A DNA stretch of 64,000 nucleotides from Spironucleus salmonicida (taxonomy: Eukaryota): assembly GCF_000497125.1 (NCBI RefSeq), contig NC_090599.1, forward strand, positions 558,001-622,000, in the 5' to 3' direction. Below the pieces are notes generated by a model. That model was not told the DNA's origin and did not search any database. It saw only the letters and a program-made list of their open reading frames with translations. Of the stretch, positions 21,021-60,527 are shown piece after piece; position 1 is the stretch's first letter, and each line of letters opens with the position of its first letter. The position numbers were made by a program, and so were the translations under genes.

Positions 21021-21153
21021 TTGGCGTTATTCACGCACTTAGCTCAATATTATTTTAGCAGGCTCACGGTATCCATGCGCCTGCTGACCGCACATAAGCC
21101 TAGTCCCTTTCCTCAATTTCGCGCTCAAACGCACCGCCAATCCACCTCGAAAC

Positions 21154-21897: not shown

Positions 21898-22273
21898 TTT
21901 ACTAATATATTAAATTAATTATATAATAATGGTAGTAATTGTTGGGGGACTGATTACACAAATGTGATATTTCTAGTATAAAAATCAGTTTTATTAATAA
22001 CGGTAAGTTGAGTATATATTTGAGTATCATGGAATCTATATTTTACGGTGATAATATACATATATATAGTAATAATATAAAAAATTGAAATTTTAAATGT
22101 TTGTTTTACTAAGCTTTATAATGATAAATATATCATATTTTTATTGAACATTACGTTGACTTCTTCTAGTACATTTATTTATTTTAAATATAAAACATAT
22201 TAAAAAACAAAAACAATGTACTTATGACATTATGGTGTATATAAAAATTAAAATTAAATTGTTGTCTTGTAAA

Positions 22274-23851
22274 ATGTTAATTTTGCTGTCTGATGTAACT
22301 ACGTGTTTCGATGACACAGCAAAACTAATTGGAATCGTTTAATAGTTTTAATACAATATGAAAGTAGTAAATGCAAAACCATCCCCGCTTAGATGTTAGG
22401 CTTTTAATAATACTGAGTCAACCGCTACTCTTAGTTATATGGATAGTACGGCCAAGACAATAGAAACCAAATTCATATATTTTTCTGATAGACCAATTGA
22501 AATTTAATTCAAAAGTGTAGATGAAACTGTCTTTAAGACAATGGCGGCTTTATCTATTATTTCTTATTCAGTGAAGCTTTCAAACGAATTAGATGTCTCT
22601 GGAACCTTTTCATTGATTTAAAATACTTTAGTAAATACTTCAAATTGTTGGAATACCATGACTCTAAATTATTCTAGAAGTGGTGATTCCTCATACTTAA
22701 ATCTATCTGCGGATCCTAATGATTGTATTATCACAGACCCAACCGCGAAATTTTAGTATTAGGTCGATAGTGTTTGGTATAACGTAGATATAGCACCTTT
22801 AGCATCAGCACCTTCAGATTATGAAGGATACAAAACACCTTTCGAACATATTAAAACTAAGTTTTATAGAGTTAATTTGACAGACTCAGCAGATGATGTT
22901 AAGAAGTAAATAGAAGATTTTTACGTTTAATTTTCTAAAAATAGAGCAATAAAAATGCGACTATTTTTAGAATTTACATAAACTGGCTCTAAATTAAAAC
23001 AATAAATATTTAGCCCTATAAGCAATATAGTTACAGTTAGTAATGAATGTTAAACTGCAATTAGTGGATTTGGAACAATTTCATCAGAATTTTTTTAAGT
23101 AGTAGGTGACTTAACTAAGTTAAGTACTTGTATAAATAATATAGCTACGGTACAATCTTCTATGGTGCTAGGAAATATATAATTATATGATGATAGATTA
23201 TTCAGTGTTATGGTTGGAATGGCTACGCTTATGTTCAAATTTTCATCTCCCTAGGATGCAATGCTCGAGTTACCATCTTCCCCAAACGCGTTAGTTATCA
23301 TGAGCTTCCTCGATGCTGATGGAAAAGTGGTTCGCGAAGAAGCAAAAGAGTACACTATCAGCCTCTCGTGCTTCTACAAGATTAGCGCAATAATTTCATA
23401 CGCCGAGACCTGTATTGTATTCTTCCCGGTGCAGACAGATAGGTGCGTATAACTTTACTCAAAAGCTGCGAAGACTCGGTTCCAGCAGATTTTGCAGGCC
23501 GATGCCGCCACAGCAAGCCGCCTGATCTACCAGGTATACGAATTCACGATGCCGTTCGAGTCAGTCCCCTACTTCCGGACCTGCCTGCGCGAAAACACTA
23601 CCTCTATGAACACCACGTTTACGTTCTTCCAAGGCTCCTACAGCGCACGGCAGCACGCCTTCGTGGACACCCTGAAGACCTCGTTCCAGCCGCTCGTCAT
23701 GTTCAACAACGACTACGACTTCCAGTTCCAGTACGTGGTGGGAATCGACCAGACCAGCCTGATAGCGATGCCCGTCAGCATCATCCTGGTGGTGCTGTTC
23801 ATCACCGTGGGCACCGTGTTCGCGGTACTGATAGTCAGGCTCAGCCAGTGA
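22274..23851 (+). CDS. Type I membrane/surface protein family A, copy 1 (525 aa)
   Basis: Hydrophobic N-terminus, Cys-spaced ectodomain, C-terminal TM (IILVVLFITVGTVFAVLIV); joins track ORFs 23261 and 23492. Confidence 0.85.
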
Positions 23852-24975
23852 GACTGTGATGTGACTTTTTTGTCTACTGGGAACTCCCGCCCGCGCTAAC
23901 CCAAAACCCTCACTTCTCGCCCCAGAGCCTCCTGCCCCAGCCGTACACCTGCGCCCGCACCATGTCGTCGCTGATCTGCTCCTTCACCCGCTGGTGCTCG
24001 CCCACGATGCCCTGGACTAGCGCGATGAGCTCCGCCTTCACCTCGCCGGTGAGCATCTCGCCCTTCTGGTAGCGCGCCTTGATCGAGTCCAGCCTCGCCT
24101 GGTCGTCCATGAACACCTCCAGGTACTGGACGCTGACGTCGATGGCGAGGTTGGCGCCGAACTCGCGCTGCTCCTCCACGGTGGCCCTGCCGCCGCTGAA
24201 CGCGAACTTGTTGATCTTCTTCTTGATCTGGGCTGCCGAGTCGTCCATGTATACCGCGCTCTGGGGATCTGATGCGGACATCTTGCTGTTCACGCCCTGG
24301 AGCGCCGGGATGAACGAGTTGTAGATCGTGGCCGGCTTCTGCAGGCCGAGCCTCGGGGCGATGTCCCGGGCCACGCGCCAGTAGGGCTCCTGCTCGTAGC
24401 CGCAGGGGATGAGGCAGAAGGGGGTGAGCTCGATGGGCGTCTGGCCCTGCTGGCTGAGCCTCCTCTGCTCGAACTGCTTCTTGGTCTCTCCCTCCTTCTG
24501 GGCGAGCGGGGCGATGGCCACGTCCGTCCTGGCGGCCCGCCAGGCCTTGCAGTACGCCTCCGTGAAGATGTGAGGGAAGGCCTGCGAGAAGGCGGGCTGC
24601 ATCTGCTTCGCGGGGAACGAGACGTAGCCCACGTTCTGGACGTCCGAGAACCCGAAGGCCCCGCGCAGCTGCGAGAGCGTGATGGCGCGCTCGAATACGC
24701 AGGAGAACTTGTATACGCTGCCGATGTACGCCGTGTTCAGGTAGATGAAAGTGCGCTCCTGGTCGAACTTGCAGGCCAGGATGTCCCTGATGTTGGACAG
24801 CGCGAACTCGTGGATCTGCTCGAACGAGAGCGTGGGGTCCCGCAGCAGCTTCTCGTCGTCCGTGATCTGGATGACCAGCGGGCAGCCGAACGCCTGCTGC
24901 AGGTACCGGCAGAAGTAGAACGGAATCATGTGGCCCAGGTGCAGGGCCGCAGAGGATGGGCCACGTCCGGTATAT
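23189..24975. repeat. Left arm of 1787-bp near-perfect inverted repeat (partner 41588-43374)
   Basis: Reverse-complement match by eye, with paired coordinates summing to 66563; four mismatches found. Confidence 0.95.
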
Positions 24976-25196
24976 AGATATACTGGACGACCCTGTTCAA
25001 AAGCATCCAAAAATAAATCAAAATCACGATGGGAAAAATAAAGAAAACGTGATAATAATGGATGCGGTTTTGAATTCGTAAGTTTATAAAATCTATCAAT
25101 TATCTCTTAGTTCAATTCGGAAACTCCAAAATTTTCGATAATTTAATTTTTAGATAATGAAGCAGTGGCTGCTGTCGCATCGATCTCTTTTGACAT
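23910..25196 (-). CDS. WARS: Tryptophanyl-tRNA synthetase (eukaryotic/archaeal type), intact copy, 428 aa
   Basis: YLYTGRGPSS, HLGH, QITDDEK, KMSAS and KINKFAFSGG motifs; ATG 25196 preceded by CCACTCC. Confidence 0.97.
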
Positions 25197-26697
25197 TTAG
25201 TTTAGGGAGTGGAAAGAAGATTATAATTTATATAATTTATATAATAATAATTAATAAAAATGAAATCTATATTACTAAAATTATACTTACTTCTTCTTTC
25301 ACTGTAATAAGTTGAATAAATTTCAGTATTATAATTATTGCTAATAATTTTTACATTTTTATCTAGCTATTCTTTAAATAAAGGATCATAAGCAATCTCA
25401 GTTTCTGAATCTACTCCGCATAGATATTGCTAAAAATGCTAACAAAATTTTCCTTTACGATCATATCATGTGAATCAAATTAACAAATGTGTATCCTCTT
25501 TGGATCATTTTTGCACACTCTTAGATATAGAAATCGGGGATTAGAATTTTTACTATTTCTTTTAAACAGTATTATTACTTACAATATTAGCATTTTGTAA
25601 TCTATTTATTAATATAATAAAACTTTAAACTTAAGATTAATCTATTTTAGTCCTTAACTTAGTTATTTCCATTATAGTGTTTCCCATTAGCTTTTTTCAA
25701 CTATTAAATGCTATTATGACCATAACAACAGGAAAATTATAATAAGAAGAGTATCTTTAAGATGAGTTTGATTTTGGGCTTACTTTAAATTTTTAAAACT
25801 TTACATCAGGGGAATAAATACTTTGGGGAACAGATTTATAAAAAAAAAATTCAAAGTTATACTGGTGGTTAGAAAATGACTATTGGAGTTGCTTTTGATT
25901 AGGTTAATTTTTTGATATATGATTATTTTTATTGTATAAATTAAATTATGATTTATGTATGACTTAAATAAAATAAAGCAAATTGACTGTTACACTGAAT
26001 ATTTACTGAATATTATATAATTGATATCTTTAATTAAAATTAAGTTATTTAAACTGCATAATCAAGAACTTCTACATTTGATAGATCATACTTTAGTTAA
26101 TAGTCTTCTGTTTTTTACTGATTAAACATATTGTTCGTAATTTAAGTAGTGAAAATAGGGCTGATTATAATTTAAAATATATTAAAATACTTAATATCGT
26201 AAATTGAAAATTAATATTTTTTTAATTTTATATAAGGTTTATAACCTATATTTTTAATATTATTTTCATTCAATAAAGCATTTAGGAATAACACAATTTT
26301 TATGAATGAAAAATACATCCTAATAAATTTTGTGCATAAATTAAAATTAAGTATCTGGGTTTATTTACCTCAAAAAGCTAGCACTATAAAGTAAAATAAA
26401 TAACATGAAACTAATCACTACATTAGGCTTTAAAATTAATATATACTTAAATTCAAATTTCATAGTCTATTATTTTTGCAATATTCATAATACTTATATC
26501 AAAATATGTAAAGAATTTATGAAAATACATAATAATTATTTTGATAAAATGTTTTCGCATACATTGCAGTATTGTGACATGTTATTCTAAACCGAGCCAA
26601 GTAATTTAGCAAATTCTCATAATTTTTTAATCTAACTGATACTGCAAATAACATTTAAATTGCACTATTATCATATATGGTTATAGAACCAAAATGT

Positions 26698-27618
26698 TCA
26701 CTGCAAATAATCAACGACATCTCCCTCAATGTTGAATACACTCTTAAAATCCTAACAGATATACTCACCACCTTCGTCTACCTTGTTCTACCGAATTAAC
26801 GTATTTATCTCGTAAATAATATCGCTGTACTTTCTGTAGACTACCTTTTTACCGTATATACCTTTCAACTCGTCAGAAACGCGTAATTCGTGCACAGTGC
26901 AGTTTCGCCGATGCTGGAAGTTCTTCTCATAGTCCTAAATGATTTTTCGCGTCAGCGGGTTCTTGGAGTTCGGGTTTGCCAGGCTCTCTGGGCACTAGCT
27001 GCTTTACAGAGCTGAACGCGGCCGTTAGCTCGAGTATTTAGGCCGTGGCTCAAACGACTCCTCAACGGCCTCTGGTAGATCGTTAGTATCCAGCTGCCTC
27101 CTTTTGACAACGCTAGAACTTTGCGGCTTTGCAGTTAATTTTTTCGATTCAATTTCAACTTTTCGCTCCTTTCTGAAGCATAAAAATTCCAAGCAATCTG
27201 CCATGCCCTAATCTATCCTATAAATACTGCTGTACGGGTCGTTGCGTGCCTTCCGGATTACGATCTGCGGCTTCTCACCGCTTTTTTCGCAGATGAGTTG
27301 CTCGAAATCGCGCAGCATTTCTGTCGGCTCTGCTCGCTTTTTCGCGGCGCTTCTGAGCGTTTCCAGCGCGTTCTGCGGCTTCTTCACCGCCACTTCGAAG
27401 AGGGCCTTGTATGCGTGCAGCTCCGCGTAGGGGGACTGCTGTGTAAGGTTCTGGAGCGAGTCGAGCGCGAAAATGAGCTTTTTTGAACGCAGGGCATCGG
27501 TTTTGATATCCTGTAATTTCAGAAATAGCTGGTGCGTCTTTACTGGCGAAAATTGCGAGGCATGCACGGCAGATGGCAGCGGGATCGTTTTAATTCGATC
27601 AAGAATTTGGGCTTGCAT
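26698..27618 (-). CDS. Hypothetical protein (306 aa) with N-terminal Mps1/Mad3-Bub1-type TPR-like segment
   Basis: Code-6 extension of track ORF 27208-27618, ends CAGTGA; YAELHAYKALFEVAVKKPQNALETLRSAAKKRAEPTEML. Confidence 0.65.
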
Positions 27619-27753
27619 TTTGGTATTACTGATAATTCATATATAATAATATATAAAATAATTTTGGAGAGGGTAGTGTAGAAAAAATAAAATGATGGGA
27701 TGTATAGATTGAAATATGGTGGATAGATGCTGGTTATATAAAGATATAGGGTA

Positions 27754-28146
27754 TCAGTCCTTTTTCTTAGCTATTAGCTGTGAATCTTCAGATTGCTAGG
27801 CTAACTGTGTGCTCTGAAAATCTAAATAAATGTTCCTCATACATCTATATGAGTTTATAACAAAAAACACTAACATCGGGAGCTTTGCATAGCACATTTC
27901 ATCAAGATATGAAATATTTAATTTTACAATAGTAGATTCAGGGAAATAATTGCTAATAAAAAGCTTAAAATGGTCAATTTTAAAGAGTACTATCATTGTT
28001 AGCAAAATTTACATAAATGGATAAAAAATACCAATAGTAATACAGGAAAATGATATTAAAATATAACTAATAACGTATCTATTGAACTAAAGATCAGAAT
28101 AATTTTTAATATATGCAAATATAGCAGTTGGTATATTGCAGTTCAT
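27754..28146 (-). CDS. Small membrane protein (130 aa)
   Basis: Code-6 ORF including track ORF 27796-28005; hydrophobic segments. Confidence 0.45.
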
Positions 28147-28510
28147 TTTGTTAGAAACCTATTGTGTATAGTAAATATATATATTAATTAATTATATGTT
28201 TAAAATACTAAGTATAGTAATTTAATATGATGATGCAGTTAAATTTCATTAATAAATCTTATTTACTGCATATTGATGATTAATGTTAAAATATAAATTT
28301 AAATGAACTTATTAGGAAGAAATTTTAGAGATTTATACCTAACTACGTGAATACAAATTTAATCTTAATTTGTAATGGTAAGTAATTTCACCTTTAAATC
28401 GAAGAATAAGCAGACTAGATCATGCAAAGTGATAAATTTATTGTAGCAGATTTGCTGTTACAAATAGAATGATAAATTTACTAGAATCCCAGTATTAATA
28501 AATCATGATC

Positions 28511-29602
28511 TCACTTAAATCTTTTACCATTATATTGCTTTTTATCGAACTTCCTTCTATAATCGTTATCCCAAATCTTATCACACTACTGCCTGCTCAT
28601 CCACATATCTACACTCGGCTATTCCATAAATTCTATTCCAGGAACTTTATCCTAGACGAAACTCTTAACTTTATCCAATACATCATAAAATTTTTTAACA
28701 TCCTCCCAGACTTTATCTCCATGTGATTTTGCATTTTCAAAGCTTTACCATGGCTTCTCTGCCACATAATGAATCAAAAAAACTTTTCGATCTCTTAAGT
28801 TGCCATCGTATACATTTTAATTACCTCTTAGTTAAAATTCACCCTTTTCGAATCGGTGAGCTAACCAAGGTATGCAGTTAAATTATCTAGAAACATTAGT
28901 CCAGTTTTCAATATTTAAAGAAATAAGTGTCTCATCAGGACCTGCATTAGGAATTCTATCATTCACATTTTATGAATAAAATCCACCATTAGAGTTATTC
29001 TTTATAGTTTAGATCAGCATATTGAATTATTCAATTGAAGGTGAAACACAGAAAAATGCCCCGGAAATACCATAACCATTGATTAATGCGTTATTTAATT
29101 ACTCATTATTAATTTTTATCCCACTTTCCATTCCTTCTTTATCCTTTCCTACTAGTGTTCCGAAAGGGGTTTGCAAGTTGAAAATATGTGAGAAATCATG
29201 TAAACAAAGCATATCCGCATCAAGAAATAGACACTTATCATATTAAGTAAGTAGAAAAATGTATAGCTTAGAAAAACAGCTTTTAAGCCAATTCTGATAA
29301 TTTTTAGCAAATCTAGGCCACTTGTTAAGATCTACAGGGAATTCTATTTTTGGAATAATAATTACATTAGCATATAGGTTCAATAACTATAGGGAATGTT
29401 ATGATAAATTTGAAGCAAAAACAATAAAATCGCATGAACTTTCTAAATGATTGGCTTTCAGAGATTAGAAAAGTGCAGCAGCTGATTGTGCATAAATATG
29501 TGTATCCATCACTAAGGTAGCAATAGAGAACTTTTTAGTAGGTGCGAACTCAAATGGTGTTGGCTTGATGTTATTAATATCAAAATCAGAGTAGTCAAGC
29601 AT
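28511..29602 (-). CDS. Glycosyltransferase family 8 (glycogenin/P13-like), 363 aa
   Basis: FSKLYIFLLTQYDKCLFLDADML (DxD), GPDE, IHYVAEKPW. Confidence 0.88.
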
Positions 29603-29632
29603 TTTTATTTATGAAGTGAAATCGTAATTCAA

Positions 29633-30106
29633 TCATTATATATCTCTATATGATTGATATGATTTTTCTAAAACGTCTGATAATTATTTCAAAAAAGTGA
29701 CGTAAATTTCAGGAGCTATTAGATTAACGGTGTCTTTACTCGCTAATGTAACTTAATCCTTTAATAAATTATAATTTCTCTGAATAATTTCAACTTTAAA
29801 TTCTGATTTCTTAATATTTAGGATTTTATATGGTTAGTCTTTTATGGTTTACAATTTTTAACATAAAATTATACCTGGGTATCCAAAGTACTTAATTGCA
29901 AGGATTGATGATCTTAAATCTAAAGTTGATACCAAAAATTCATAATCATCTCTAGTTTATGTTTTCAAAACTGTTGATAGAAAAAGAATATCTTCAATCT
30001 CTTAATCATTATATTGAATTTTTAATTCGGTAAAAATGCTATCGTCATTGTAATGGAAAATTTTTAATAGATGCGTATTAATTTTTGATGCTTGTTCATA
30101 ATTCAT
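29633..30106 (-). CDS. Hypothetical protein (157 aa)
   Basis: Code-6 ORF, no motif recognised. Confidence 0.45.
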
Positions 30107-30169
30107 TAAGAATTAAAGATATTAAAATATATAAAATAAAATTGTATCATTAATAATTTTTCATTAAAA

Positions 30170-30529
30170 TCATTTCCTCTTTATATATCCAGCGTTTATA
30201 TTGCGTTCCACCTCATAGCTAAATTAACCAAAAGGTCGTCTATATTTTTAAGGATGCTCCAAAATACCTTAATTAAATGTCTATTCTTATACTTTGTTAT
30301 CCCTATGCGTAGTTAATAGTTTTTCCAGTAAATTATTATTTGTACTGTGCTGAGTTGTCTAGGTATATTGAGTATAATCCATTTTTTAGGCAACATCTCG
30401 TCTATCAAGAGTAGCTAGTCTTTCATTCATTGCAGATTCTTGTCTTTATCGCATTTATAAAGGGTTAGGCATATATCCTATTTAAGCTTATTTGACTAAT
30501 TATTCAGGAGTTGGTTAGGGCTTAGACAT
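30170..30529 (-). CDS. Hypothetical protein (119 aa)
   Basis: Code-6 ORF MSKPQPTPEQLVKQAQIGYMPNP... Confidence 0.55.
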
Positions 30530-30579
30530 TTTAGCGGAAAAATAATTATATACAATTATATCTTAATTAAATTAATTGG

Positions 30580-31476
30580 TCAATCAAAAAGTGGGATTTG
30601 CCAATATTCAATTGGGTCACAGCTTCTCTCGTTCTTATTTAAACTGTTAATATAAATCATTTATTCTTCAGTAAGTGTGAACTCTAATTTGAAATTTGAC
30701 TTAATTCTTTCTTAGCAACTGGACTTTGGAATAATACTGTATTTATTAGTATTAAATCTTTGTAAATGCCATTTAAGTACAATCTAAGCTATTGATACAC
30801 CTAAACCTAGAGCAATTTCTTATAACTTAACATCATCTGAAAATTTTTAGATACCAGACACTCCCTAGTAGAATCCTCCTAACGGAGAATATGCCGTAAT
30901 ATGAAGTCCATTCTTTAAACAGAACTAAATTAAGCCTTCATTTTAGAAAAATGGGTGGGACTCGATTTGATTTACTAAAGGCTTAATACGGGCTCCAGAT
31001 AGTAAGTCATTAATGAGAGCAACATTGAAGTTAGATACTCCAATATGCTTAGTTAATCCGGTATCTACCAAGCTTTCCATGGCACGATATGTATCCATAA
31101 TTGAAAATCCTGACTCAAGCAATACTTCACCTTTATCGTTACGTGGCACAAGTTGTTTTCCATGTTAAAAACATACCGGCCAGTGAATTAAGAACAGGTC
31201 AACGTAATCAAGTTTTAGAGTCACAAGCTACTACTATAACTGCTATGTGACGTTAGAAGGATTATGATTTGTATTCCACAGCTTAGTAGTTATCCAGTAA
31301 TCTGATCTATCATGGCTTTAAAAGAATTCTTAAAACGCTTCACCAACTGCGGTCTCATTTTTATACACAAAAGCACAGTCGATGTGCTTATAACCTGTAT
31401 TCAATGCATTTAACACAATCTCCTTTGTGGCATCAAGAGGAGCCTAGTACGTTCCAAATCCGATCTGAGGGATCAT
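30580..31476 (-). CDS. Aldo-keto reductase (aldose reductase-like), 298 aa
   Basis: [58 protein letters not shown]. Confidence 0.95.
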
Positions 31477-31554
31477 TTTTGATTTAGTATTTTAATATAC
31501 AATTAATACCTTTACCCGTTACCTTCCTAATTTATTATTATACAACAAACCACC

Positions 31555-32604
31555 ATGTTAGCCAAAATGGACCAGCTTTCGCAGTCCTGGTATTCCTACC
31601 TCTCGCAAACGCAGCCATCCGAGACCCCGCTAGAGCCTAGCGCTTCCCAAATAGCTAGCTATCTAACGCTGCCGCCGGAAGAGCTGCAGGACCTCCTAAC
31701 GCGGAAACTCGCCGCGTTCCAAGCAGCGCACGACGCCTTCGCCCCCGTGAGCGCCCAGAACGTCACGGCCTTTCTGGAGAGCTTCGGCTACGACGCGGCG
31801 CCGTTTCGCGCGCAAATTCTGCAGATTTTGCCCGATTTCGCGCGCGAAACGCTCGAAAACTTCTGCCTCACCGTCGAGCTGCTACCGTTCCAGGCGACGT
31901 ACTTCCAGCTCCCGGGCCTGAACCGCGCCGGATTCGGCGTTTTCCACGAGCTGATTTTCTCGAAGCTGCAGCGCGTCGCGGGGGCGCTGGGGGCCGATTT
32001 TGCGGTAGAAAAGCGGCCGGATACTAAAATTCGGGCGCCAGAATCCCGTAAACTTGAAAAACGGAGCGATTTTTCAGGCGCAAAATCGACGAGATCGAGC
32101 GATTTGCGGGCGCAGCGCGCGCGGGCAACGCCGATTGCGCGCGTAGAGCCTCAACATTAAATCGCGCTCGACCTGCCGACCGGAAATCAGGTGAAATCGA
32201 TCCAGAAGTTCCTCCTGAAGCAGCAGAAAGCGCGCGAAATGAAGGCAGAAATTGCGGTCAAAACCGAAAATCTCGGCAGGAGCCAGGCTGGGATGCAAAA
32301 CGTGAAATTGAATTCAAATTCGATTTTCCACTCCTAATTGATGCATCTAAATTATCAGAAAGGGCGAAAGCGGCTGCTTTTCGACCTGAAAGTCGAGATT
32401 TTTGATGGTAAATTCGTGCCGTTTCAGATCTACGAGGGCGAGGACTGTTCTGCCAGTGTGGTGCGCTTCTGCAGGGTTTACAGCCTGAATGCTGGCCGTG
32501 GCGTCGTTTTGAAGAGTATTTTCGAGGGAGTTTTCGACCGTTTTGGCGTCGGGTGGGAGGCGGATGCTGAGTTTCCAGGTAGGCTTCATAAGTCGAAAAT
32601 GTGA
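31555..32604 (+). CDS. Hypothetical protein (349 aa)
   Basis: Track ORFs 31555-32160 and 32338-32604 are one code-6 frame; C-terminal LFDLKVEI..GK...QIYEGED....VVRFC motif. Confidence 0.75.
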
Positions 32605-32763
32605 TATTTAGCGATTTGGCGGTATAGCAAATTGAACGATTTCCGGGATTTGAAGTGAAAAATTGAATTGAAAATGGGTTTAGATATATTTTAGAATTAA
32701 TGGCCTGCAGAGCAGGATAATTTTTTGATTAAGCTTGATTTAACTAGATAATGAACAAAAAAC

Positions 32764-33666
32764 TCATACAAATAACGTGCTGCTAACATCGTAGTCATTT
32801 TAAATAATAGTTATGCTATCCGTGTTTCTTTTGGCAACCATAGGCCTCAGCTCGCCGAACCCACTGGAGATGGGCTTGTTGGAGGCGTCCTTGCGGCTGT
32901 TGGACTTGCAGCACACGATGGGCATCACGACAGCCATGACGAGCAGCAGGCAGATGCAGGCCAGCATGATGATCTGCGTGGTGGTGAACTTGATCTTCTG
33001 CTCGCCCCCGGTGAAGTTCGTCTCGATCTTGAGCGTGTCGCCGGATACGTAGGTCTCCTCGTACTGGAAGCGGTCGTTGCCGGTCGTGAAGATCTGGATG
33101 CTCTTCGCCTGCTTGAGGCCGTTCAGCTTGTCGAAGCAGGTAGTGGGGTTCACCTGCGCGAAGGACTCGGGGCAGCGGAGGGTGATGGTGCTGGTGCCGG
33201 CGACTGTGCTTGGGGCCGCGTGGTAGAAGTTGGATCCGAGCGTGATGAGGGAGCCCTTGGTGACGTCGATGCCGGCGGGGAAGGTGATCACGATGGAGTT
33301 GTCACTTTCTGAGGCGTAGTTGATCTTGACGCCGATCTCGGTCGCGCAGTAGGCGAACAGCAGCTGCTTTTTCGTAATAGTTATTTCAGTTGGAGCAGTA
33401 CCTGGTTGAGTAGTTATAGATTATTTTATATCCTTTTAAAAGTGTGCTGAAATTTTTTTTAAGTCGGTTTCACCAACACTCGCATCAAATTGAAATTTGT
33501 TTTCTCCTTACTTAAAGTCAAATTTATTTCCATCAACAGTTATTGAAAATTCTGATATACCTGTAATAGCAGAATCTATTGTAACAAATTGAATTGATAT
33601 AGTGGTGTTAGTAACCGTAACAAATCCCAGTGTTTTGTCCGCTGCAAAAAGAGCTAGGAACATCAT
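32764..33666 (-). CDS. Type I membrane protein family B, copy 1 (300 aa)
   Basis: Signal-like N-terminus, TM IIMLACICLLLVMAVVMPIVCC, cytosolic RKDASNKPISSGFG. Confidence 0.85.
32854..33390. repeat. 537-bp identical direct repeat (partner 40509-41045) inside family B copies 1 and 2
   Basis: No mismatches seen at offset 7655; flanks diverge. Confidence 0.92.
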
Positions 33667-34090
33667 TTTTTATAAAGTCAATTTATAATTATTTAGTTAA
33701 ACATATATTATTTGACTCCACCAAAAACATAAAACTATAGAAAATAATATATTCTTTGTAATGAATAAATATAAACGTATGGCAAAAACTAATCTTTAAA
33801 TTTTAAGTTTATCTGGTTTTCTGGGGTAAAAATTGATTCTAACAAAAGTTTGTAAGTGCCTACTATAATCTAGAATTTTACAAATTCATCCTATTTACTC
33901 TAAATACGAAAATAAAACTTTACTTCTTACATATTTAATATACAATAAGAATATTTTTATTCACTAGAATAATTTGAAGCATTACCAAATCCCATTATTT
34001 GTACTTGCCAACTATCTTTATCAACCCTGATACCTGAATATAACTTTCAAATACCTTTCCCGCACCCTCAAAAACGCAACTCAAACCCGA

Positions 34091-36298
34091 TCACTGGAAC
34101 GCGCCCCACCCGAAGCCGAAGCCATCGCCCTCAGCGGCGCCACCTGCGCCGCCATCTTTTTTGGGATCCCCGCTAAAATCGCCCCAGCCGTCGCCGTTTC
34201 CGGCCTGCTGCTCGCCACCAAAACCGCCGAAAAAGTCACCGCCGCCGCCAAAGCCACCGAAACCCCCAAATCCGGCGTCAAAAACGCCTTTCCCCTTCTG
34301 CTTCTGTTTCTTCACATTCGTGTACTCAGCTGCTAGTCTGGCGTCCCCGAAAGTCTTCGGAATCTCGTCCTCAGGCTCCAAACACGTCTTGCTGAACTCG
34401 ATGAAAATCTCATTTGTAGTCAAAAAGTCCACAAAACATTTGTTAATTTCGCCGTATCCAGAGCTGATAATTTTGTTCAAAGCAGTCAGATTCTGTGGCG
34501 CGGCCACGTGCGCGCTGACGTTGTTCTGGATCAAACTGGGCTTGTTCTGCACGAATTTCTGCTTCTCCTCAACGGCAGCCTCGTCGGTCAATTTGACCGC
34601 CAGACGCAGCAGGGCGCGCGCTATCGTGATGAAGTACGTCTGCTGGCTGGTACGCGATTTGAAGGGTATGAAGTGCGTCATTTTGTCCCTCAGAAGGCTC
34701 ATAAAGTCCGTTTTTTCGATCAAAAAGCAGCTGATTTCCGTCTCGAAATCGCCGAATTCCGCGAGCGGAATGATGATCCTAGAGGCGATAAAATGCAGAT
34801 TTGAGTTCTGCTCGAACGCGCCGAAAAGTGATATAACCTCTTGGAGCAAATTCTGCTATAAGAACTTCTTTATTACGCTAACGACGCTGATGCAGAGCGG
34901 CACGCCAGAAACGCAAAAAGTGTCTCCCAGCGGAATACTCGACGGGCCTCCGGCGCCTGAATGCGCGCTGAGCTGAAGCTGGCCAAAGAGGCCCTCTTGG
35001 ACGATTTAGACGCTCTCCTCGACTGCCTGCTCGCTTTGGCCGAACCAGTCGAGTTTGGTCGACTTTTGAGGCTATTTCTTGTTGTTTTGGAAGTACTTGA
35101 AAACCGCAGTTTTCGCATCGGCAGAAATAGCAAGAATTCTTGCTATGAAATGGAGCATCTGGAACGTTCCGTAACCCACGAGGTTGGGCGGGGCTTGATT
35201 TCTGAGGAATCTGATGCGGCTCTGAATAGAGCAGAATTGATCCAAGAAAGCGGCGAAAACTGGAAGATTCTTGAATTCGAAATCGTCGATTTCTTGAATT
35301 TTCAAAATTGGGAAGTTTTCTATCTGCTTATTTTTGATTTCAACCTGTTAATTAGTGTATAATAATTGGTGCTGGAATTCTTTTCTTTTTTAGAGAGTTT
35401 CAAAGTTAACTTTCATGATCTCGTCTTTGTATGTATGGTAAAGTTACACTTCTTTTTAAATCATGAAGCTTACGCAGCAAACGACAAGATTGCTAGCATA
35501 ATGAAGCCTAAGCAGCTGTTCGTTTTTGATTTCACTAAAGAATAGAAAATTCGAAATTTAATTCAATTTAAGGATAACTATTTCTGATAAAAACGGAGTC
35601 TATTAAGAGATAATATTAGAGAGAAGTTCCGAGGAATTAGAAACTCCCTCTAAAGGTATTTCAAGGTTAGTAATGAAACTAGATAAAAGATCAAAAACAT
35701 TTGACTTAATACACAGTATTTATACCTGCTTGTTAATATCATCAGTACGAGACTTAGAATCTAATAAAAATACTTTGAGAGACTCTGAGATTTATTAAGA
35801 TATGATATGTTGAGCCCAAGATTTAAAGTAACCTAGGTTTTCAGTTAAATACGTCGCTAATGCAGAAACACGCTTTGACGAAGCTAAAATAGCAGTAATT
35901 AACTTCAAAAAGGCATTATTGATGTGAGGAGGTGCTAGAGTTGATGTAAGTGTTGGTGATGTTGTTAGTTTCTAAAGAGTTTCAAACGGAATAGCCAGAA
36001 GGTCTGATGTTGAGAGAATAGATTGAAGAACAGAGCGAAGAGCATCTGGATTAGCAAAAATTTCAATTGCACGCTCAGTGTGATCAGATGGCTTTTCCGA
36101 AAACATATGCTTCATTAAGCGACGAATTGTTGATGTTTTGACTAAATAGTCTAAAATAACAGGATTTTCAGAACGTATTTCAAAAGAAAGTGTTTTAACT
36201 TCTAATAATTTTTCTAAATTATCTTGCTAGACTAATTACTCGATAGACTATGATTATTAATCATTATCATACAGAGACCAATAGAGATTATTCGCCAT
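34091..36298 (-). CDS. SIT4-associated protein / PP6 regulatory subunit (SAPS family), 735 aa
   Basis: N-terminus LEKLLEVKTLSFEIRSENPVILDYL resembles SAPS LxELMDExDVLQECKxQNxKLIEFL; FEQNSNLH resembles YTWNNFLH; G/F/W-rich tail. Confidence 0.75.
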
Positions 36299-36408
36299 TA
36301 TTTTAGAAGTGGTAGATTTAAATAGTTTAAAGTATATTATATGGTATACACTCAGTTACTTAAGTCAATTTGTTAATATAAATCATATTAAATCTATTGT
36401 CAATTAAA

Positions 36409-37305
36409 ATGAGTTGCTGTGGAAAACCGAAATAAGCAATTTATGAAGATGAACCTATTATTGGAGATCATTTTAAAACTTTTACATAGATTAAAGAATA
36501 TCTATATTAGACAGGAGTAAAATAATATGATGTAGTATTTTATTTAGACTTTTCAAGATCTAATTTACTAAACTAAGAGACTACTCTACTCCATACAGAT
36601 TCATAAACAAATCCATATTATATGGCACTAGAAGCCGTTGCACTCGCAGCAGCTTAATTGGATTCAGATTAAAAGTTTTTAGCCTATAGGTATGGATGTA
36701 CGGAGTCAAAACATTTACGGATTGTTCCTCTATATTAGGATTAAGTCTAATATGAAGGTATTGATGCACTATTGTGTGCATATAAGTAAGCTTGTCGCGA
36801 TGTTACATTTTCTGGACCCGTGTAGTTATCAAAATGTTTTGAAAATTCAATAGAATTTTCAAAATAAAATCCTGGGAAACATATTGTTTCTGTACTTATT
36901 ACTAATAGTTAATCTTAATCTGAGATAAAAGATATTAATGCACTTAAGTAAGCTAGTATGTATCCAATTTCTTTCTGTTGTTTTGGAGTTGGAAGAAAAA
37001 ATTTATAGACGCTAGAATTATATGACGATTTAAAAGGTAGAAATGTTGATAACTTCTAATTTGTAGATTTTGACAAGATCAAAAAGAAGGTGGTTAGATT
37101 AAGTGTGTCTGAGGCCAAACTTATTGATTTTATTGGTTGTTAAATTTTCATGGAGATTCCTTTTTAGGCAAAATAAATGCATTCAAAAGATTACTATAAT
37201 TTAGATAGAACTGTTATATTTACTGAGTACTCAGCTATTGTCACATCTAACCATGAAACTTAAGAAATACCCTTAAAATTTGAACATTTAGATATGCTAG
37301 AGTGA
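36409..37305 (+). CDS. Copine-type vWA domain protein without C2 domains (298 aa), N-terminal MSCC
   Basis: YLDFSRSN, NPY, SGP, ASMYPISFCCFGVG, DDLKGRNVDNFQFVDF. Confidence 0.88.
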
Positions 37306-37528
37306 AGATAAATTTTATATGAGCTAATTTTAGAATATTATTTTTATGTTTATATATCTTAGCGGAAAATATAATATATTTTTTAAATCTAACATAAAAT
37401 AATCTTTACAATTAATTAATACAAATGTGGTACTTAGTATTATATTTGATTAAGTAAATTATTAAGTAAAATAATTATATGATGATTAGTAATTTATACG
37501 TAATTTAGGAAAATTTATCATCTCAAAA

Positions 37529-37858
37529 ATGAGGAAATATTATTGCGAAGTGACACCTCTTGAGAAATAATTATAACAGTAAGAGATTAAATATTAAATG
37601 GTGTAATAAAGTAAATCATAAGAGTGCCTACTGGCTCCACAGAACTTTCATTTAAGACATAATAAAAAATCATGCATACATATGAAAGATTTCATTTAGT
37701 AATCATTTGAAGAAGTTAACCCTCCTGAAAAAGATTCGCCTTTACAGACTTAGTAAGAGATTTAGGATGATTTCCGGAGTTTTTTATAAAATTTAAGTCG
37801 GCCAAAACCACGTAATATATCTTTACCAAAACCTATTCCATAGCCATTAATGAAGTGA
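37529..37858 (+). CDS. Hypothetical protein (109 aa)
   Basis: Code-6 ORF ending AAGTGA. Confidence 0.5.
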
Positions 37859-37885
37859 AAAATGATATTAAACTGAGTGAAATTT

Positions 37886-38776
37886 TCATTCTAAGCTTAA
37901 AAGCTAACTCTATTCAATTTTTTCTCTAATGAATTCCTACCCAAATTATACTTCTGCAAAAATATCACTATGCTCTTTAACTATACGACATGCTCTAAGC
38001 TCATCATGATATCCAAGATTCTAACAGCGCACATACTAATCTGGTAGCTCCATAAAAGTTTTACAACACAATATTTAAGCAAAATCTTTGCTTTGATACT
38101 TGCGGCTAAGCGTATCCAAATGGAAGAATTAGAAATTATCAAATTTTCGGCCTTCGCAATCATCTAAAAACTCTAATGAATCGAAATTAGCATCGCCTAC
38201 CCCAATGCAGCAAATAGAAATAGGGAAGTAGCTTGCCTAAATGACGGAGTTAAAATCTTTCGTTATAGACTATGACGGAGAGTTAGTAAGAATCACACCT
38301 ATAGTATGCTCTTTAAATTATTAGCAATGTGTAATCATACTATCGATACAAGTACTTATTTACGTTGGTCCTGATAGTATAGTGGTCTTAAGTGCGCTAA
38401 AGTAAGCCCCCATTAGCTCTTCTGACGATGTAAATTTCGCTTAATCACCTAATAGTGGAACTACTCTTTTATGCTTGGAATCTACACAACCAAAACGATA
38501 TGCATGAAATACTCTATTGCTATCTAGTTCAGCAGATGCTGTTAATATCGCTTTTAAGGCAATAATATAAGGGTTATTCAGTGAATCAGTATGCTAAAGG
38601 GATTTTTACTGATTTATGAGGTTAGAGCGTGAAAAATCAAAATATATTACAATATCTAATGGATGTACAGCGATTTATTTAAGAATATCTTTTATTTAAC
38701 TAAATTTGGTGAATCGATCTGGATTAATATCCAAATCTCCCAATGCTAGTTCCGGCTTAAAACATTGTTTAAACAT
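37886..38776 (-). CDS. Second copine-type vWA protein (296 aa), inverted paralog of 36409-37305
   Basis: YFDFSRSN, NNPY, LSGPT, ASYFPISICCIGVGD, DDCEGRKFDNFQF. Confidence 0.88.
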
Positions 38777-38966
38777 TATAAAATATTATAACGCTCATAT
38801 ATGTACATAATAATATTAATTTGTGAAACTAGAAAAACTAAAATATAATATGCAAAGGTGAATTTTATTACTAATGCTCACTGTATTTTTATTAAATATG
38901 AATAACGAGCGTTTATTCTTAAATAAATAAAACAATAAATAAATAGCTGTATTAATGAATCATAAA

Positions 38967-39554
38967 TCATGGCTATTTTGGTAGCTTTTTAAGTATAAAA
39001 CAATATAAATTTTATCCCCATTAAGTATCCACTTCAATCCTTTTCTCTACTATTGTAATTGTAAATTTGTCTGGAAATGCTTCTTCTATCAGTTCATCCC
39101 TTTCACTATCAAAGGTTATCGAAAATATAACACCGTTATCTTATAGTTTTTCATACAATTATTCCAATGCTGCCATAAATGAGTCTAGAGGTGACTAAGG
39201 TGAAGCAATAACACAATCAAGACAACCCTTATCTAATATTAAATCATATTTGAATTTATCCTTAAAACATGTAACATCCTAAATTTCATATTCTATTTCA
39301 GGCCTAGTTTTCATATGCTCTTAAACTGCCTCCACTGCATTTTTCGAAAAGTCTATGCATTTAATGCATTTATATCCCTAATCGTAAAGCTAAAATGGGG
39401 TTCTAGACGTTCCGGCCCCAATAATCAGTATCTTCGCATCTTTTATCAAATACTCCTTTAATTCTTCTTCTAATTAGCATATCTAACAATAAAAGTCGAA
39501 AAGCTGCTAGTTCTGCTTATACCGGTCTTCCCAAAACTGACTTTGATGATACAT
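38967..39554 (-). CDS. Class I SAM methyltransferase, EEF1AKMT4/METTL13-N-like (195 aa)
   Basis: YHQSQFWEDRY, ILIIGAGTS, IDFS, YDLILDKGCLD. Confidence 0.85.
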
Positions 39555-39648
39555 TTTATTCAACAACTTATTATTATCACATAATATTAATATATTTAAC
39601 TTTTCACTCATTATATATTATTCTCCAATTTAATATACACTGCACAGA

Positions 39649-40395
39649 ATGGAATTCGAGCCGAGCCTCGTACCAGCCGGAATCAACTACGCAGCAAGCG
39701 CCCAACCCAGCAGGCCAACAACGGAGCTTCCGCCGATTTAGCAAAGCAAGTACACACGCGAGCAGTCGAACCGCGTGCGGCACGTCAACACCTTCGGGTA
39801 CAACAACATGCCGAACCGCTCGAACTCGATTCCGGACATCGAATCCATGGCGATTATCAACCAGAATCGCCCCTACGAGCCGGGGATGCCGATGGTGCTC
39901 ATCGGGCTCAACACGAACTCCGGAGACTGCAGAAACATCGCGCCGTATTTCCTGCAAATTCACAAGAAATTCTAGCGAATTTATTTCCTGCTGGTGTCGT
40001 ACCAGCCCTACGACAACATAATAAACACCTTTGCGAACATCCCGGAGCTGCTCCAGCTCAACGTCTCTCACGACGCGCACGGCTCATTTAAGGCCTTTTT
40101 GGCGCAGATGAACAAGCTTTCGATTCCGCATGTTTTCATCTTCAACCTCAGCCGGACGCTCATCTGGGACGGGCACCCCCAGAGCATGGCGCTGGGCACG
40201 AATCTGATGCGGCTGAACGGCCAGGTCGCTATCCACAACAACATGCGGGCGGTGTCGCCCAGTCGAGTTTAGGAGTGGCGGGCGCGTGGAATGAGCCCGC
40301 AACGCTGCAGGAGCGTCGCAACGACTTGGAGGAGCGACGAGGAGCTGTATGCCAGCAAAAGCATTGCGGAGCTCAAAACGATGAGGCTAGAGTGA
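39649..40395 (+). CDS. Thioredoxin-fold protein lacking CxxC (248 aa); paralog of 10896-11492
   Basis: Joins track ORFs 39775 and 39994; DCRNIAPYFLQIHKKF, IPELL, SIPHVFIF, IWDGHP; ends GAGTGA. Confidence 0.75.
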
Positions 40396-40418
40396 CTTAA
40401 TAGAAAATATAGACAAAC

Positions 40419-41321
40419 TCAGACAAAAAGCATCGATTCCTGCTTATAAATGGTCAATTCGACATTGCTCTTGCTGGCACAGCTCATATCACTTTTGGGC
40501 CTAAGGCTGCCGAACCCACTGGAGATGGGCTTGTTGGAGGCGTCCTTGCGGCTGTTGGACTTGCAGCACACGATGGGCATCACGACAGCCATGACGAGCA
40601 GCAGGCAGATGCAGGCCAGCATGATGATCTGCGTGGTGGTGAACTTGATCTTCTGCTCGCCCCCGGTGAAGTTCGTCTCGATCTTGAGCGTGTCGCCGGA
40701 TACGTAGGTCTCCTCGTACTGGAAGCGGTCGTTGCCGGTCGTGAAGATCTGGATGCTCTTCGCCTGCTTGAGGCCGTTCAGCTTGTCGAAGCAGGTAGTG
40801 GGGTTCACCTGCGCGAAGGACTCGGGGCAGCGGAGGGTGATGGTGCTGGTGCCGGCGACTGTGCTTGGGGCCGCGTGGTAGAAGTTGGATCCGAGCGTGA
40901 TGAGGGAGCCCTTGGTGACGTCGATGCCGGCGGGGAAGGTGATCACGATGGAGTTGTCACTTTCTGAGGCGTAGTTGATCTTGACGCCGATCTCGGTCGC
41001 GCAGTAGGCGAACAGCAGCTGCTTTTTCGTAATAGTTATTTCAGTCGAAGCATCACCTGGTTGAGTAGTTATACTTAAGGTTTGTTCATTTGCAAAATGA
41101 TCTGAGATTGTTTTCAAAGGTACAGTACTCACACTCGCATCAAATTAAAATTTGTTTTCTCCTTACTTAAAATCAAATTTATTTCCTGCAATAGTTATAG
41201 AAAAATCTGCTATACCTGTAATGCTAGCAGCTATTGTAACAATTTGAATAGAAACCGTAGTGTTTGTTACTGTAGAGAACCCTATAGTGTTTGCATCGAC
41301 TAGTAAAGTAAGTAGCAGCAT
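40419..41321 (-). CDS. Type I membrane protein family B, copy 2 (300 aa)
   Basis: Same length as copy 1; identical core, divergent N- and C-termini. Confidence 0.85.
40509..41045. repeat. 537-bp direct repeat, second copy
   Basis: Matches 32854-33390. Confidence 0.92.
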
Positions 41322-41469
41322 TTTCTAAAATAAGGATCATTATAAATTATTTATTTTTCTAGATATAAAAAATCACTTTACTAAATTTAGTTTCTTCAGT
41401 TTTAAGATTGTTGTAATTAATCATATAATAGACAAGAATATAACTGAAATCTTTACTTTTTATTTTAGA

Positions 41470-42653
41470 TGAATTATCTCAAATCTAAGTGTCTACGATA
41501 AATTTTAGGTGTCGTATTATCACTACTTATTATGCAGAATGCCGCTCAACTTTACATTCTAAGTATTACTGAATACACTATTTGATCATATACCGGACGT
41601 GGCCCGTCCTCTGCGGCCCTGCACCTGGGCCACATGATTCCGTTCTACTTCTGCCGGTACCTGCAGCAGGCGTTCGGCTGCCCGCTGGTCATCCAGATCA
41701 CGGACGACGAGAAGCTGCTGCGGGACCCCACGCTCTCGTTCGAGCAGATCCACGAGTTCGCGCTGTCCAACATCAGGGACATCCTGGCCTGCAAGTTCGA
41801 CCAGGAGCGCACTTTCATCTACCTGAACACGGCGTACATCGGCAGCGTATACAAGTTCTCCTGCGTCTTCGAGCGCGCCATCACGCTCTCGCAGCTGCGC
41901 GGGGCCTTCGGGTTCTCGGACGTCCAGAACGTGGGCTACGTCTCGTTCCCCGCGAAGCAGATGTAGCCCGCCTTCTCGCAGGCCTTCCCTCACATCTTCA
42001 CGGAGGCGTACTGCAAGGCCTGGCGGGCCGCCAGGACGGACGTGGCCATCGCCCCGCTCGCCCAGAAGGAGGGAGAGACCAAGAAGCAGTTCGAGCAGAG
42101 GAGGCTCAGCCAGCAGGGCCAGACGCCCATCGAGCTCACCCCCTTCTGCCTCATCCCCTGCGGCTACGAGCAGGAGCCCTACTGGCGCGTGGCCCGGGAC
42201 ATCGCCCCGAGGCTCGGCCTGCAGAAGCCGGCCACGATCTACAACTCGTTCATCCCGGCGCTCCAGGGCGTGAACAGCAAGATGTCCGCGTCAGATCCCC
42301 AGAGCGCGGTATACATGGACGACTCGGCAGCCCAGATCAAGAAGAAGATCAACAAGTTCGCGTTCAGCGGCGGCAGGGCCACCGTGGAGGAGCAGCGCGA
42401 GTTCGGCGCCAACCTCGCCATCGACGTCAGCGTCCAGTACCTGGAGGTGTTCATGGACGACCAGGCGAGGCTGGACTCGATCAAGGCGCGCTACCAGAAG
42501 GGCGAGATGCTCACCGGCGAGGTGAAGGCGGAGCTCATCGCGCTAGTCCAGGGCATCGTGGGCGAGCACCAGCGGGTGAAGGAGCAGATCAGCGACGACA
42601 TGGTGCGGGCGCAGGTGTACGGCTGGGGCAGGAGGCTCTGGGGCGAGAAGTGA
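41470..42653 (+). pseudogene. WARS: Second TrpRS copy: body near-identical to the intact gene, 5' end decayed
   Basis: In-frame TGA at 41583-41585 just before YTGRGPSS; the first downstream ATG (41634) lies after HLGH. 41472-41512 still weakly resembles the intact gene's 5' coding sequence. Confidence 0.8.
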
Positions 42654-43374
42654 GGGTTTTGGGTTAGCGCGGGCGGGAGTTCCCAGTAGACAAAAAAGTC
42701 ACATCACAGTCTCACTGGCTGAGCCTGACTATCAGTACCGCGAACACGGTGCCCACGGTGATGAACAGCACCACCAGGATGATGCTGACGGGCATCGCTA
42801 TCAGGCTGGTCTGGTCGATTCCCACCACGTACTGGAACTGGAAGTCGTAGTCGTTGTTGAACATGACGAGCGGCTGGAACGAGGTCTTCAGGGTGTCCAC
42901 GAAGGCGTGCTGCCGTGCGCTGTAGGAGCCTTGGAAGAACGTAAACGTGGTGTTCATAGAGGTAGTGTTTTCGCGCAGGCAGGTCCGGAAGTAGGGGACT
43001 GACTCGAACGGCATCGTGAATTCGTATACCTGGTAGATCAGGCGGCTTGCTGTGGCGGCATCGGCCTGCAAAATCTGCTGGAACCGAGTCTTCGCAGCTT
43101 TTGAGTAAAGTTATACGCACCTATCTGTCTGCACCGGGAAGAATACAATACAGGTCTCGGCGTATGAAATTATTGCGCTAATCTTGTAGAAGCACGAGAG
43201 GCTGATAGTGTACTCTTTTGCTTCTTCGCGAACCACTTTTCCATCAGCATCGAGGAAGCTCATGATAACTAACGCGTTTGGGGAAGATGGTAACTCGAGC
43301 ATTGCATCCTAGGGAGATGAAAATTTGAACATAAGCGTAGCCATTCCAACCATAACACTGAATAATCTATCATC
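41588..43374. repeat. Right arm of 1787-bp inverted repeat
   Basis: Reverse complement of 23189-24975. Confidence 0.95.
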
Positions 43375-44295
43375 GAAAATTTAGGTATCATTTAAGATCA
43401 TTGAAGATTATACGGTAACTATATCAGTAATACATTCACGCAACTAGGTAAGATCTCCTACTACTTGCAAAAAATCAGTAGAAATTGTTCCAAATCCACT
43501 AATTGCAGTTTAACATTCATTACTAACTGTAACTATATTGCTTATAGGGCTAAATATTTATTGCGTTAATGTAGAGCCAGATTATGTAAATTCTAAAAAT
43601 AATCTGGTTTTCATCAATCTATTTTTCGAAAACTCAATAAAAAAATCATCCATTTAAGCCTGAACTTCAGCAGTAGAATCAGATCTATTAACTCTATAAA
43701 ATTTTGTAGTCATATGTACAAAAGGTTTCTTATAACCTTCATAATCCGGAGGTGGTGATGCCAATGGAGCAATAGCTACATTTTTCCATACACTGCCAAC
43801 CAAATATTAAAACTATACAGTGGGAGTAGTGATAATACAGTCATTAGGGTTGGCTGTTAGATTGATATATGATGAATCACCACTTCTAGAATAATTTAGA
43901 GTCATGATATTCCAACAATTTGAAGTATTAACTAAAGTATTTTAAATCAATGAAAAGGTTCCAGAGACATCTAATTCGTCTTAAAGCTTCACGGAATAAG
44001 ATATAATTGAAAGTTCTGCCATCTTTTTAAATATAGCAGCCTCAACATTTTAAAAATAAATTTCAATTGGCCTATCAGAAAAATATTGAAAATTTGCTTT
44101 AATTGACTTAGCAGTAACATCCATATAATTTAAAGTTGCGGTTGAAGCTGTATTATTAAAAGCCTAACATTTGATGGGTTAAGGGTTGATGTTCTTTACA
44201 AGCATATTGTATTAGGACTATTACACAATTCCAATAAGCTCCGCGTTATCCTAGAAACACTTGGTTGGTTCAGCTAACAATAGCAATACTAACAT
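42712..44295 (-). CDS. Type I membrane/surface protein family A, copy 2 (527 aa)
   Basis: MLVLLLLAEPTKCFQDNAELIGIVQQ... is paralogous to 22274-23851, with an identical C-terminal ~220 aa. Confidence 0.85.
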
Positions 44296-50026: not shown

Positions 50027-50089
50027 TATATGGGTGAAAGGGAAAATTTTTATATATTATTATATAATAATTAGTATTTCAAACTTGAC

Positions 50090-55628: not shown

Positions 55629-55634
55629 AAATGT

Positions 55635-60424: not shown

Positions 60425-60527
60425 TTTGAAACTATTGATAATTATCCTTATAAACTATAAAATATAATTTGCTAAAACCACATTACTATTATAATCAAAT
60501 ATTTTCACTATTATCAAATTCAGTAAA

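Follow-up and report, generated by a model that had tools for sequence, protein, structure and literature searches.

A tryptophanyl-tRNA synthetase gene cut by an old inverted duplication in Spironucleus salmonicida: arms probably homogenised by recurrent GC-biased gene conversion

The window considered here is a stretch of 64,000 nucleotides (nt) from the fish parasite Spironucleus salmonicida (assembly GCF_000497125.1, contig NC_090599.1, positions 558,001 to 622,000 of the forward strand; coordinates below count from the first letter of the window). It contains an inverted repeat, one edge of which lies inside the gene for tryptophanyl-tRNA synthetase (TrpRS); the complete gene is found at one arm and a 5′-truncated copy at the other. 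The original prediction was that recombination between the arms flips the segment between them and swaps which TrpRS body is expressed. The observation behind it is largely confirmed. We consider it probable that an old inverted duplication has been subject to recurrent GC-biased gene conversion between its arms. The locus looks like ordinary concerted evolution rather than a gene switch, and with the switch goes most of what made the original claim attractive.

Inversion of the spacer, as a by-product of crossing over, is possible in the palindromes of primate sex chromosomes. Conversion between the arms of these palindromes is GC-biased, according to two reports (PMC8981503, PMC8600007). The palindromes resemble the Spironucleus locus in having inverted arms more than 99% identical about a unique spacer, with an identity that derives from recurrent, GC-favouring conversion and not from youth, as is proposed here. 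There are four differences. The arms here measure 1.8 kb, those of the primates tens to hundreds of kb; the host is a protist with two nuclei that is probably mostly asexual; the end of one arm falls within a gene that is essential and single-copy, leaving a fragment; and the GC effect is far stronger, with a GC content at third codon positions (GC3) of 0.95 against 0.20 in the two parts of the gene.

The plastid inverted repeat offers a second parallel, with its boundary fragments psi-ycf1 and psi-rps19 and its flip-flop isomers. In the plastid, as at this locus, the edge of the repeat cuts a gene, and copy correction, probable here, prevents the full and truncated copies from diverging. When the plastid arms recombine, a single-copy segment is inverted and the products are unchanged, which is the behaviour proposed in the original prediction. 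GC-biased conversion is reported for the plastid repeat also (PMC4524490). The Spironucleus locus differs in lying on a nuclear chromosome; it is known from an assembly, in one orientation, and isomers in equimolar flip-flop would be hypothetical. Invertible segments of the Hin, Gin and Fim type and the shufflons are programmed DNA inversion switches. They share with this locus a segment flanked by inverted repeats, inversion of which brings one or another 3′ part behind a constant 5′ part. Here, however, the 12 spacer open reading frames (ORFs) scanned include no recombinase gene, the repeats are 1.8 kb long instead of tens of base pairs, the alternative 3′ parts encode the same protein and the host is a eukaryote.

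A further comparison is with the organism's own genome, of which 19.2% lies in duplicated regions of at least 2 kb and at least 95% identity; these have a mean GC content of 44.7% against 30.7% elsewhere, allelic heterozygosity is 0.09%, and gene conversion was suggested by the authors for surface-protein families (PMC9509377). Such regions are like the locus in being GC-rich, mostly of one gene, and associated with a suggestion of gene conversion, but the core described here, at 1787 nt (92-93% identity over 2.7 kb), falls below the published cut-off. The main text of that paper mentions neither intragenic GC3 steps nor TrpRS nor this locus. The 2014 genome paper gives a GC content of 36.2% for coding and 25.4% for intergenic DNA, and in its accessible part the terms 'gene conversion' and 'codon usage' do not occur (PMC3916229). 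Literature searches, which did not cover supplements, found no printed description of the locus. Its parts are as follows.

22283-23188, no strand: outer, diverged part of the old duplication; partner at 43375-44280, with 64-80% identity per 50-nt bin in 15 of 18 bins
23189-24975, no strand: left arm, 1787 nt, GC 0.51-0.64, with 99.78% identity to the right arm when that is reverse-complemented
24976-41587, no strand: unique spacer, 16,612 nt, about 13 ORFs
41588-43374, no strand: right arm, an inverted copy of the left arm, from the repeat search and a position-by-position comparison
22232-23851, plus strand: left surface/membrane-protein gene, 539 amino acids, an ORF under genetic code 6 with codons 320-539 in the arm
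23910-25196, minus strand: intact TrpRS gene, 428 amino acids, from the table 6 translation and Pfam family PF00579
24273-24957, minus strand: span of the four diagnostic sites, GCA/GCG, CAG/TAG, GTA/GTC and CCA/CCG (left/right)
41588-42653, plus strand: 5′-truncated TrpRS copy, codons 75-428 and the stop, encoding residues identical to those of the left copy
42712-44295, minus strand: right surface/membrane-protein gene, intact, 527 amino acids, protein 84% identical to the left

A repeat search of the window returned one long inverted pair, 22283-24975 and 41588-44280, of 2693 nt at 92% identity and 16,612 nt apart. The arms of 1.8 kb that had been described are its core; the full ungapped comparison of 23189-24975 with inverted 41588-43374 matches 1783 of 1787 bases, and chance is excluded as the source of a repeat of 1787 nt at 99.8%. 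The mismatches fall at 24273/42290, 24599/41964, 24696/41867 and 24957/41606 (left/right). Per 100-nt bin, identity is 99-100% across 23283-24882, 96% and 94% in two bins that straddle the edges, and 67-97% over the outer part, 22283-23182. The first 82 nt outside 23189 are about 62% identical. Past both ends identity is at the random level (24-36%), with 26-36% directly inside 24975/41588, and the arm edges are abrupt. Two patches within the outer part, 22583-22682 and 22983-23082, stand at 94-100% and fill four bins, the first of which straddles a patch start. Each arm holds TrpRS codons 75-428 (83% of the gene) together with the last 220 codons of the 539- or 527-residue membrane-protein gene, in agreement with the content originally described.

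The left TrpRS belongs with the class I aminoacyl-tRNA synthetases. Its translation matches PF00579 (tRNA-synt_1b) with an E-value of 7.6e-25 and 88.3 bits against a cut-off of 21.1, and among 7999 candidates scored 5551 are relatives at E ≤ 0.001. It carries HLGH at residues 86-89 and KMSAS at 305-309, the HIGH-type and KMSKS-type signature motifs of class I. The protein is 63% identical to Hexamita inflata TrpRS over 426 residues, colinear across the arm boundary, and is therefore no chimera. An older partial protein on record is identical to residues 1-228. Codons 1-74 occupy 24976-25196, just inside the left edge of the spacer, where the only intact TrpRS 5′ end had been placed.

The counterpart in the right arm lacks such a beginning. 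Homology ends at 41588 and a TGA lies two codons upstream of it; the earliest ATG in frame is codon 90, which follows immediately on the HLGH motif and opens an ORF of 339 amino acids. At one glutamine position the right copy has TAG, against CAG in the left. A decayed TrpRS 5′ end had been reported at the right inner edge, and of this we find no trace: blastn of 625 nt of the left against 627 nt of the right inner flank gave matches at chance level only, the best with an E-value of 0.037 and on the wrong strand, and tblastn of the 73 N-terminal TrpRS residues against the whole window returned the left copy alone. An intron that supplies a 5′ exon to the right copy was considered and rejected, as there is, by inspection only, no splice-like junction at 41588. 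Only four introns are known from the S. salmonicida genome (PMC9509377).

The composition of the TrpRS gene changes where the duplication begins. GC3 is 0.20 (15/74) in the unique codons 1-74 and 0.95 (337/354) in the arm codons 75-428 (Fisher p = 2e-42). The edge of homology is at 74/75, and the best single change point lies eight codons further in, after codon 82, as expected if heteroduplex seldom extends to the very end of the homologous stretch. Of the four arm differences that persist, one (24957) is in this edge zone, 19 nt from the boundary. The two parts belong to one mRNA, with expression and codon-usage selection equal in both, so that a process tied to the duplicated DNA is needed to separate them. 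Non-coding DNA shows the pattern too: within the arm, the two convergent genes are separated by 58 nt with a GC content of 0.53, against 0.18-0.23 in intergenic DNA outside. Identity and GC are correlated along 22283-24975 (Spearman 0.73, p = 5e-10, 53 bins). Per 50 nt, GC climbs inwards, from 0.32 to about 0.7, and falls off sharply at the inner edge, a profile gradual on the outer side and abrupt on the inner, which fits a fixed inner limit, the end of homology, and an outer conversion limit that wanders. The left membrane-protein gene follows the same course, with GC3 of 0.07-0.33 up to codon 330 and, within the arm, a gradual climb from about 0.5 at the outer edge to 0.97 at the 3′ end.

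The step is also visible in codons and residues. TrpRS uses two TAA and one CAG for glutamine in codons 1-74, and CAG at 29 of 29 positions in codons 75-428; the sole TAG within arm sequence is the right-copy variant at 41964. When lineage-specific amino-acid changes are polarised with Hexamita and Giardia, ten in the body are towards GARP and three towards FYMINK, compared with none and six, respectively, in the N-terminal part (Fisher p = 0.003).

How old is the duplication? The genes for the membrane proteins provide an answer. The 539-residue protein has a hydrophobic N-terminus, a C-terminal transmembrane segment and seven NxS/T sequons, and no Pfam family matched it. Its four relatives are the right-hand copy (84%) and three proteins encoded outside the window (39-50%), annotated as hypothetical or transmembrane proteins of S. 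salmonicida. The last 220 codons of the two genes are identical in DNA. Just outside the arms (codon columns 1-319) the pair shows a synonymous divergence (dS) of 0.83 and a nonsynonymous divergence (dN) of 0.175, omega being 0.21. A dS of 0.83 directly adjoining arms that differ by 0.22% means that the duplication is old and that the identity of the arms is maintained, not young, as in a palindrome under conversion, where arm identity far exceeds the adjacent divergence. Two patches of low dS (0.15-0.23), in columns 121-160 and 241-280, resemble conversion tracts of greater age. Other family members were rejected as donors to the mosaic outer part, since they are at most 50% identical.

A second pair of repeats in the window reproduces the pattern independently.

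32854-33390, minus strand: second, independent conversion tract, a 537-nt exact run shared with 40509-41045 in direct orientation, 7655 nt apart

The run sits within two membrane-protein genes of 300 amino acids, at 32764-33666 and 40419-41321 (minus strand). Its GC content is 0.59 against 0.31-0.41 in the flanks, and its GC3 is 0.85-1.0 in both copies against 0.05-0.37 in their diverged ends. A third paralogue, at 58801-59697, serves as a control: it is AT-rich over its whole length, with a GC3 of 0.05-0.25 in the columns of the run and a DNA identity of 39-61% per 20-codon bin. When steps in GC3 were measured between adjacent blocks of 25 codons in 30 ORFs, the three sharpest (0.76) were edges of the repeat tracts described here and the next sharpest reached 0.64. 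The enrichment in GC expected of a converting tract is thus present in TrpRS and in this second pair, with the caveat that GC islands without a partner also occur. As a separate matter, we note that the 300-residue family gives a sub-threshold match to the Pfam s48/45 domain (17-18.5 bits, cut-off 24).

The anatomy of the repeat and the course of identity along it are observed, as are the step in composition and the old divergence beside the arms; we infer that GC-biased conversion is the cause of the step. The history would begin with an inverted segmental duplication of at least 2.7 kb, comprising the membrane-protein gene and the 3′ 83% of its convergent neighbour, TrpRS. Both membrane-protein copies would have stayed intact, the TrpRS copy being 5′-truncated and without a start of its own. 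The inner 1787 nt would then have been homogenised repeatedly by homologous recombination between the arms, with GC-biased repair that may, over a long time, have driven GC3 in the duplicated part of TrpRS from about 20% to about 95%. The same conversion could have purged TAA and TAG glutamine codons and shifted amino-acid usage to GC-rich codons. Variants arising in the fragment would either be overwritten or be transferred to the working gene and exposed there to selection, which removes the bad ones. The fragment thus appears to be under selection because it is overwritten by the functional gene and overwrites it in turn. The GC3 step and the dS of 0.83 outside indicate that the arms exchange sequence persistently, and to that extent the view that the right copy does not drift freely stands; the synonymy of the arm differences, on which that view had relied, is a weak argument for selection on the fragment. 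The simpler alternative offered earlier, conversion from the functional copy, comes closer to the truth, although what the data point to is recurrent and GC-biased exchange instead of one recent event.

GC-rich islands elsewhere in the window complicate this account.

20611-21910, 26800-27638, 33948-35304, 48031-49047, 50064-51006 and 60504-61470, no strand: examples of GC-rich islands

There are 16 of them, covering 26% of the window, with a mean GC content of 0.51 against 0.285 elsewhere. All three self-matches of the window fall in GC-rich islands, six in number. Several observations weigh against recurrent GC-biased conversion as the explanation. Ten of the 16 islands have no partner within the window; six of seven island genes checked are singletons in their own 90% protein cluster; and for one of them, an orphan gene of 247 amino acids (21154-21897), a protein search found no relative, although in this gene GC3 over 60 codons reaches a maximum of 0.92. 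Islands without a partner mean that some other process also raises GC here, and the GC island of the arms could in principle predate the duplication. The outer patches of 94-100% identity are AT-rich (GC 0.26-0.32), so conversion need not leave a GC mark. Finally, the polarity of the four arm differences discussed below is taken from composition, not from an outgroup. The proposition that every GC island is an annotated duplicate is ruled out by the cluster singletons and the orphan gene. Allelic conversion hotspots, or unannotated fragments elsewhere in the genome, are candidate sources of the unpaired islands. Islands often cover the 3′ parts of genes and convergent gene pairs.

These islands bear on the possibility that a single recent duplication, or one long conversion, copied to the right-hand locus exactly a GC island that already lay over the 3′ ends of TrpRS and the membrane-protein gene, the GC content being unrelated to exchange between the arms. 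A GC3 of up to 0.92 in genes without an annotated paralogue, the frequent position of islands over the 3′ ends of convergent genes and an arm difference of just 0.22% are all compatible with it. We nevertheless think it rather unlikely, since the edge of an island already present, and an uncommonly sharp one, would have to lie within eight codons of the breakpoint in TrpRS. In unique genes islands are less pronounced and change less steeply: by best single change point their rich-side mean GC3 is 0.54-0.69 against 0.97 in the TrpRS body, and their steps are at most 0.64 against 0.76. The second repeat pair would, moreover, repeat the coincidence at both edges of its tract.

A different extension, drawn by analogy with plastids, keeps recurrent conversion and gives the fragment a use. 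The locus could be to the nucleus what the inverted repeat is to the plastid, with both orientations present in the tetraploid, binucleate cell and the fragment retained as an in-cis template for repair and conversion, at the cost of GC-biased recoding (GC3 0.95) and a nudging of amino-acid content. We regard this as speculative and unlikely. If true, the fragment would guard TrpRS, essential and single-copy, against decay by mutation, the parasite being largely asexual.

The prediction that initiated this work holds that crossover flips the 16.6-kb segment, that the single 5′ end is expressed with either body and that the alternation keeps both under selection. Several points speak for it. 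The geometry is correct, in that inversion of 24976-41587 would join the one TrpRS 5′ end to the other body; arms of 1.8 kb that are 99.8% identical offer substrate enough; the evidence points to lasting exchange between them; and the four differences are all synonymous. Resolution of the proposed conversion intermediates by crossover would produce exactly this inversion, which is mechanically plausible, and inversions may occur. They would probably be neutral. Both membrane-protein genes have their own 5′ parts outside the arms, no gene would be broken, and the junctions would be re-created apart from the four sites. Inversion would also be silent, since both joins encode the same TrpRS protein, and would be a neutral by-product and not a switch. 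The predicted swap in expressed bodies, in other words, would leave the product unchanged, as both translate under code 6 into the same 354 residues and there is nothing to switch. Non-crossover gene conversion alone accounts for the data. No recombinase, integrase or transposase family was matched in 18 ORFs compared with Pfam, 12 of them in the spacer. The model as a whole is in our judgement distinctly unlikely.

The synonymy of the four differences, which was counted in favour of that model, deserves comment. They are the four codon differences originally named, and their synonymy in the TrpRS frame is confirmed under table 6. For random changes in the 354 codons the probability of a synonymous outcome is 0.23-0.30, giving P = 0.003-0.008 for four of four. 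All four differences, however, set G or C against A or T in a tract with 95% G or C at third positions, and for GC-to-AT changes the probability is 0.40-0.48, with P = 0.025-0.054, a weak significance. Judged by composition, the derived states are probably the A-ending left codons at three sites and the right TAG at one; three of the four differences thus probably arose in the functional copy and one in the fragment. In the functional gene only synonymous changes survive, so the synonymy needs no selection on the fragment.

Might the right ORF be a functional, N-terminally truncated TrpRS-like protein under selection of its own? It is uninterrupted, its predicted product has already been recorded and shares a 90% cluster with the 428-residue protein, and it has no nonsynonymous difference from its parent. 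We consider this very improbable, because the ORF lacks the first 89 residues and the HLGH class I signature, a TGA lies just upstream, there is no similarity to the parental 5′ region or promoter, and conversion explains the intact frame. That assembly or polishing created the right arm, or the near-identity of the arms, is scarcely credible: the Quiver and Pilon short-read polishing described for the genome can homogenise repeats (PMC9509377), but the arms are joined to unique flanks and are far shorter than the reported read N50 of 14.6 kb (PMC9509377), four differences persist, polishing cannot yield a GC3 of 0.95, a graded outer edge or diverged, intact flanking paralogues, the older partial record agrees with TrpRS residues 1-228, and contigs of four DNA runs, possibly from the source sample and not independent, contain 97-98% of sampled words across 20500-28500.

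The remainder of the window provides context. The spacer holds the TrpRS 5′ end with a divergent intergenic region of 63 nt, genes for a DHHC palmitoyltransferase, a GT8 glycosyltransferase, an aldo/keto reductase, two copine-like proteins and a methyltransferase, hypothetical genes and the two 300-residue membrane-protein paralogues. ORFs of the window are free of introns and densely packed, with TAA and TAG read as glutamine, and for ten of ten further ORFs looked up there are proteins on record that are identical letter for letter. The copine-like/vWA paralogues are convergent, at 36250-37305 (plus) and 37886-38776 (minus), and match PF07002 (E-values 1e-24 and 7e-26). With GC3 values of 0.20 and 0.27 the two are AT-rich, and so are duplicated genes that do not bear the signature of conversion. 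Another inverted repeat, a short one, pairs 55456-55694 with 62922-63173; it is about 250 nt long and 83% identical, its halves being 7.2 kb apart and both in small GC-rich islands. By eye only, the C-terminal half of a GC-rich ORF of 248 amino acids (39649-40395, plus) resembles the C-terminal part of an AT-rich ORF of 356 amino acids (10422-11492, plus), with the motifs PELL.LN and PHVF.F in common. A single tRNA gene was found in the window, for tRNA-Trp (CCA) at 60528-60600 (minus), about 35 kb from TrpRS and just downstream of a GC-rich ORF of 279 amino acids; that it shares the window with TrpRS is probably a coincidence.

We view the locus as a clean new example of a known process, and as an unusually sharp case of the GC-rich duplicated fraction. 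It amounts to a natural experiment, in which a duplication breakpoint splits one essential, single-copy gene into an unduplicated and a duplicated part, which share a promoter, an expression level and a protein. A contrast of 0.20 with 0.95 inside a single gene separates biased conversion from selection on codons or expression better than comparisons between genes can. Under a simple mutation-bias model, the population-scaled bias would be roughly B = 4-5. Conversion of this strength would be able to purge reassigned TAA and TAG glutamine codons and to alter the amino-acid content of a housekeeping enzyme. It would also account for a promoterless fragment that has stayed 'evergreen' over the equivalent of a dS of about 0.8, and it offers a mechanism for the GC-rich duplicated fraction reported in the genome of this fish parasite.

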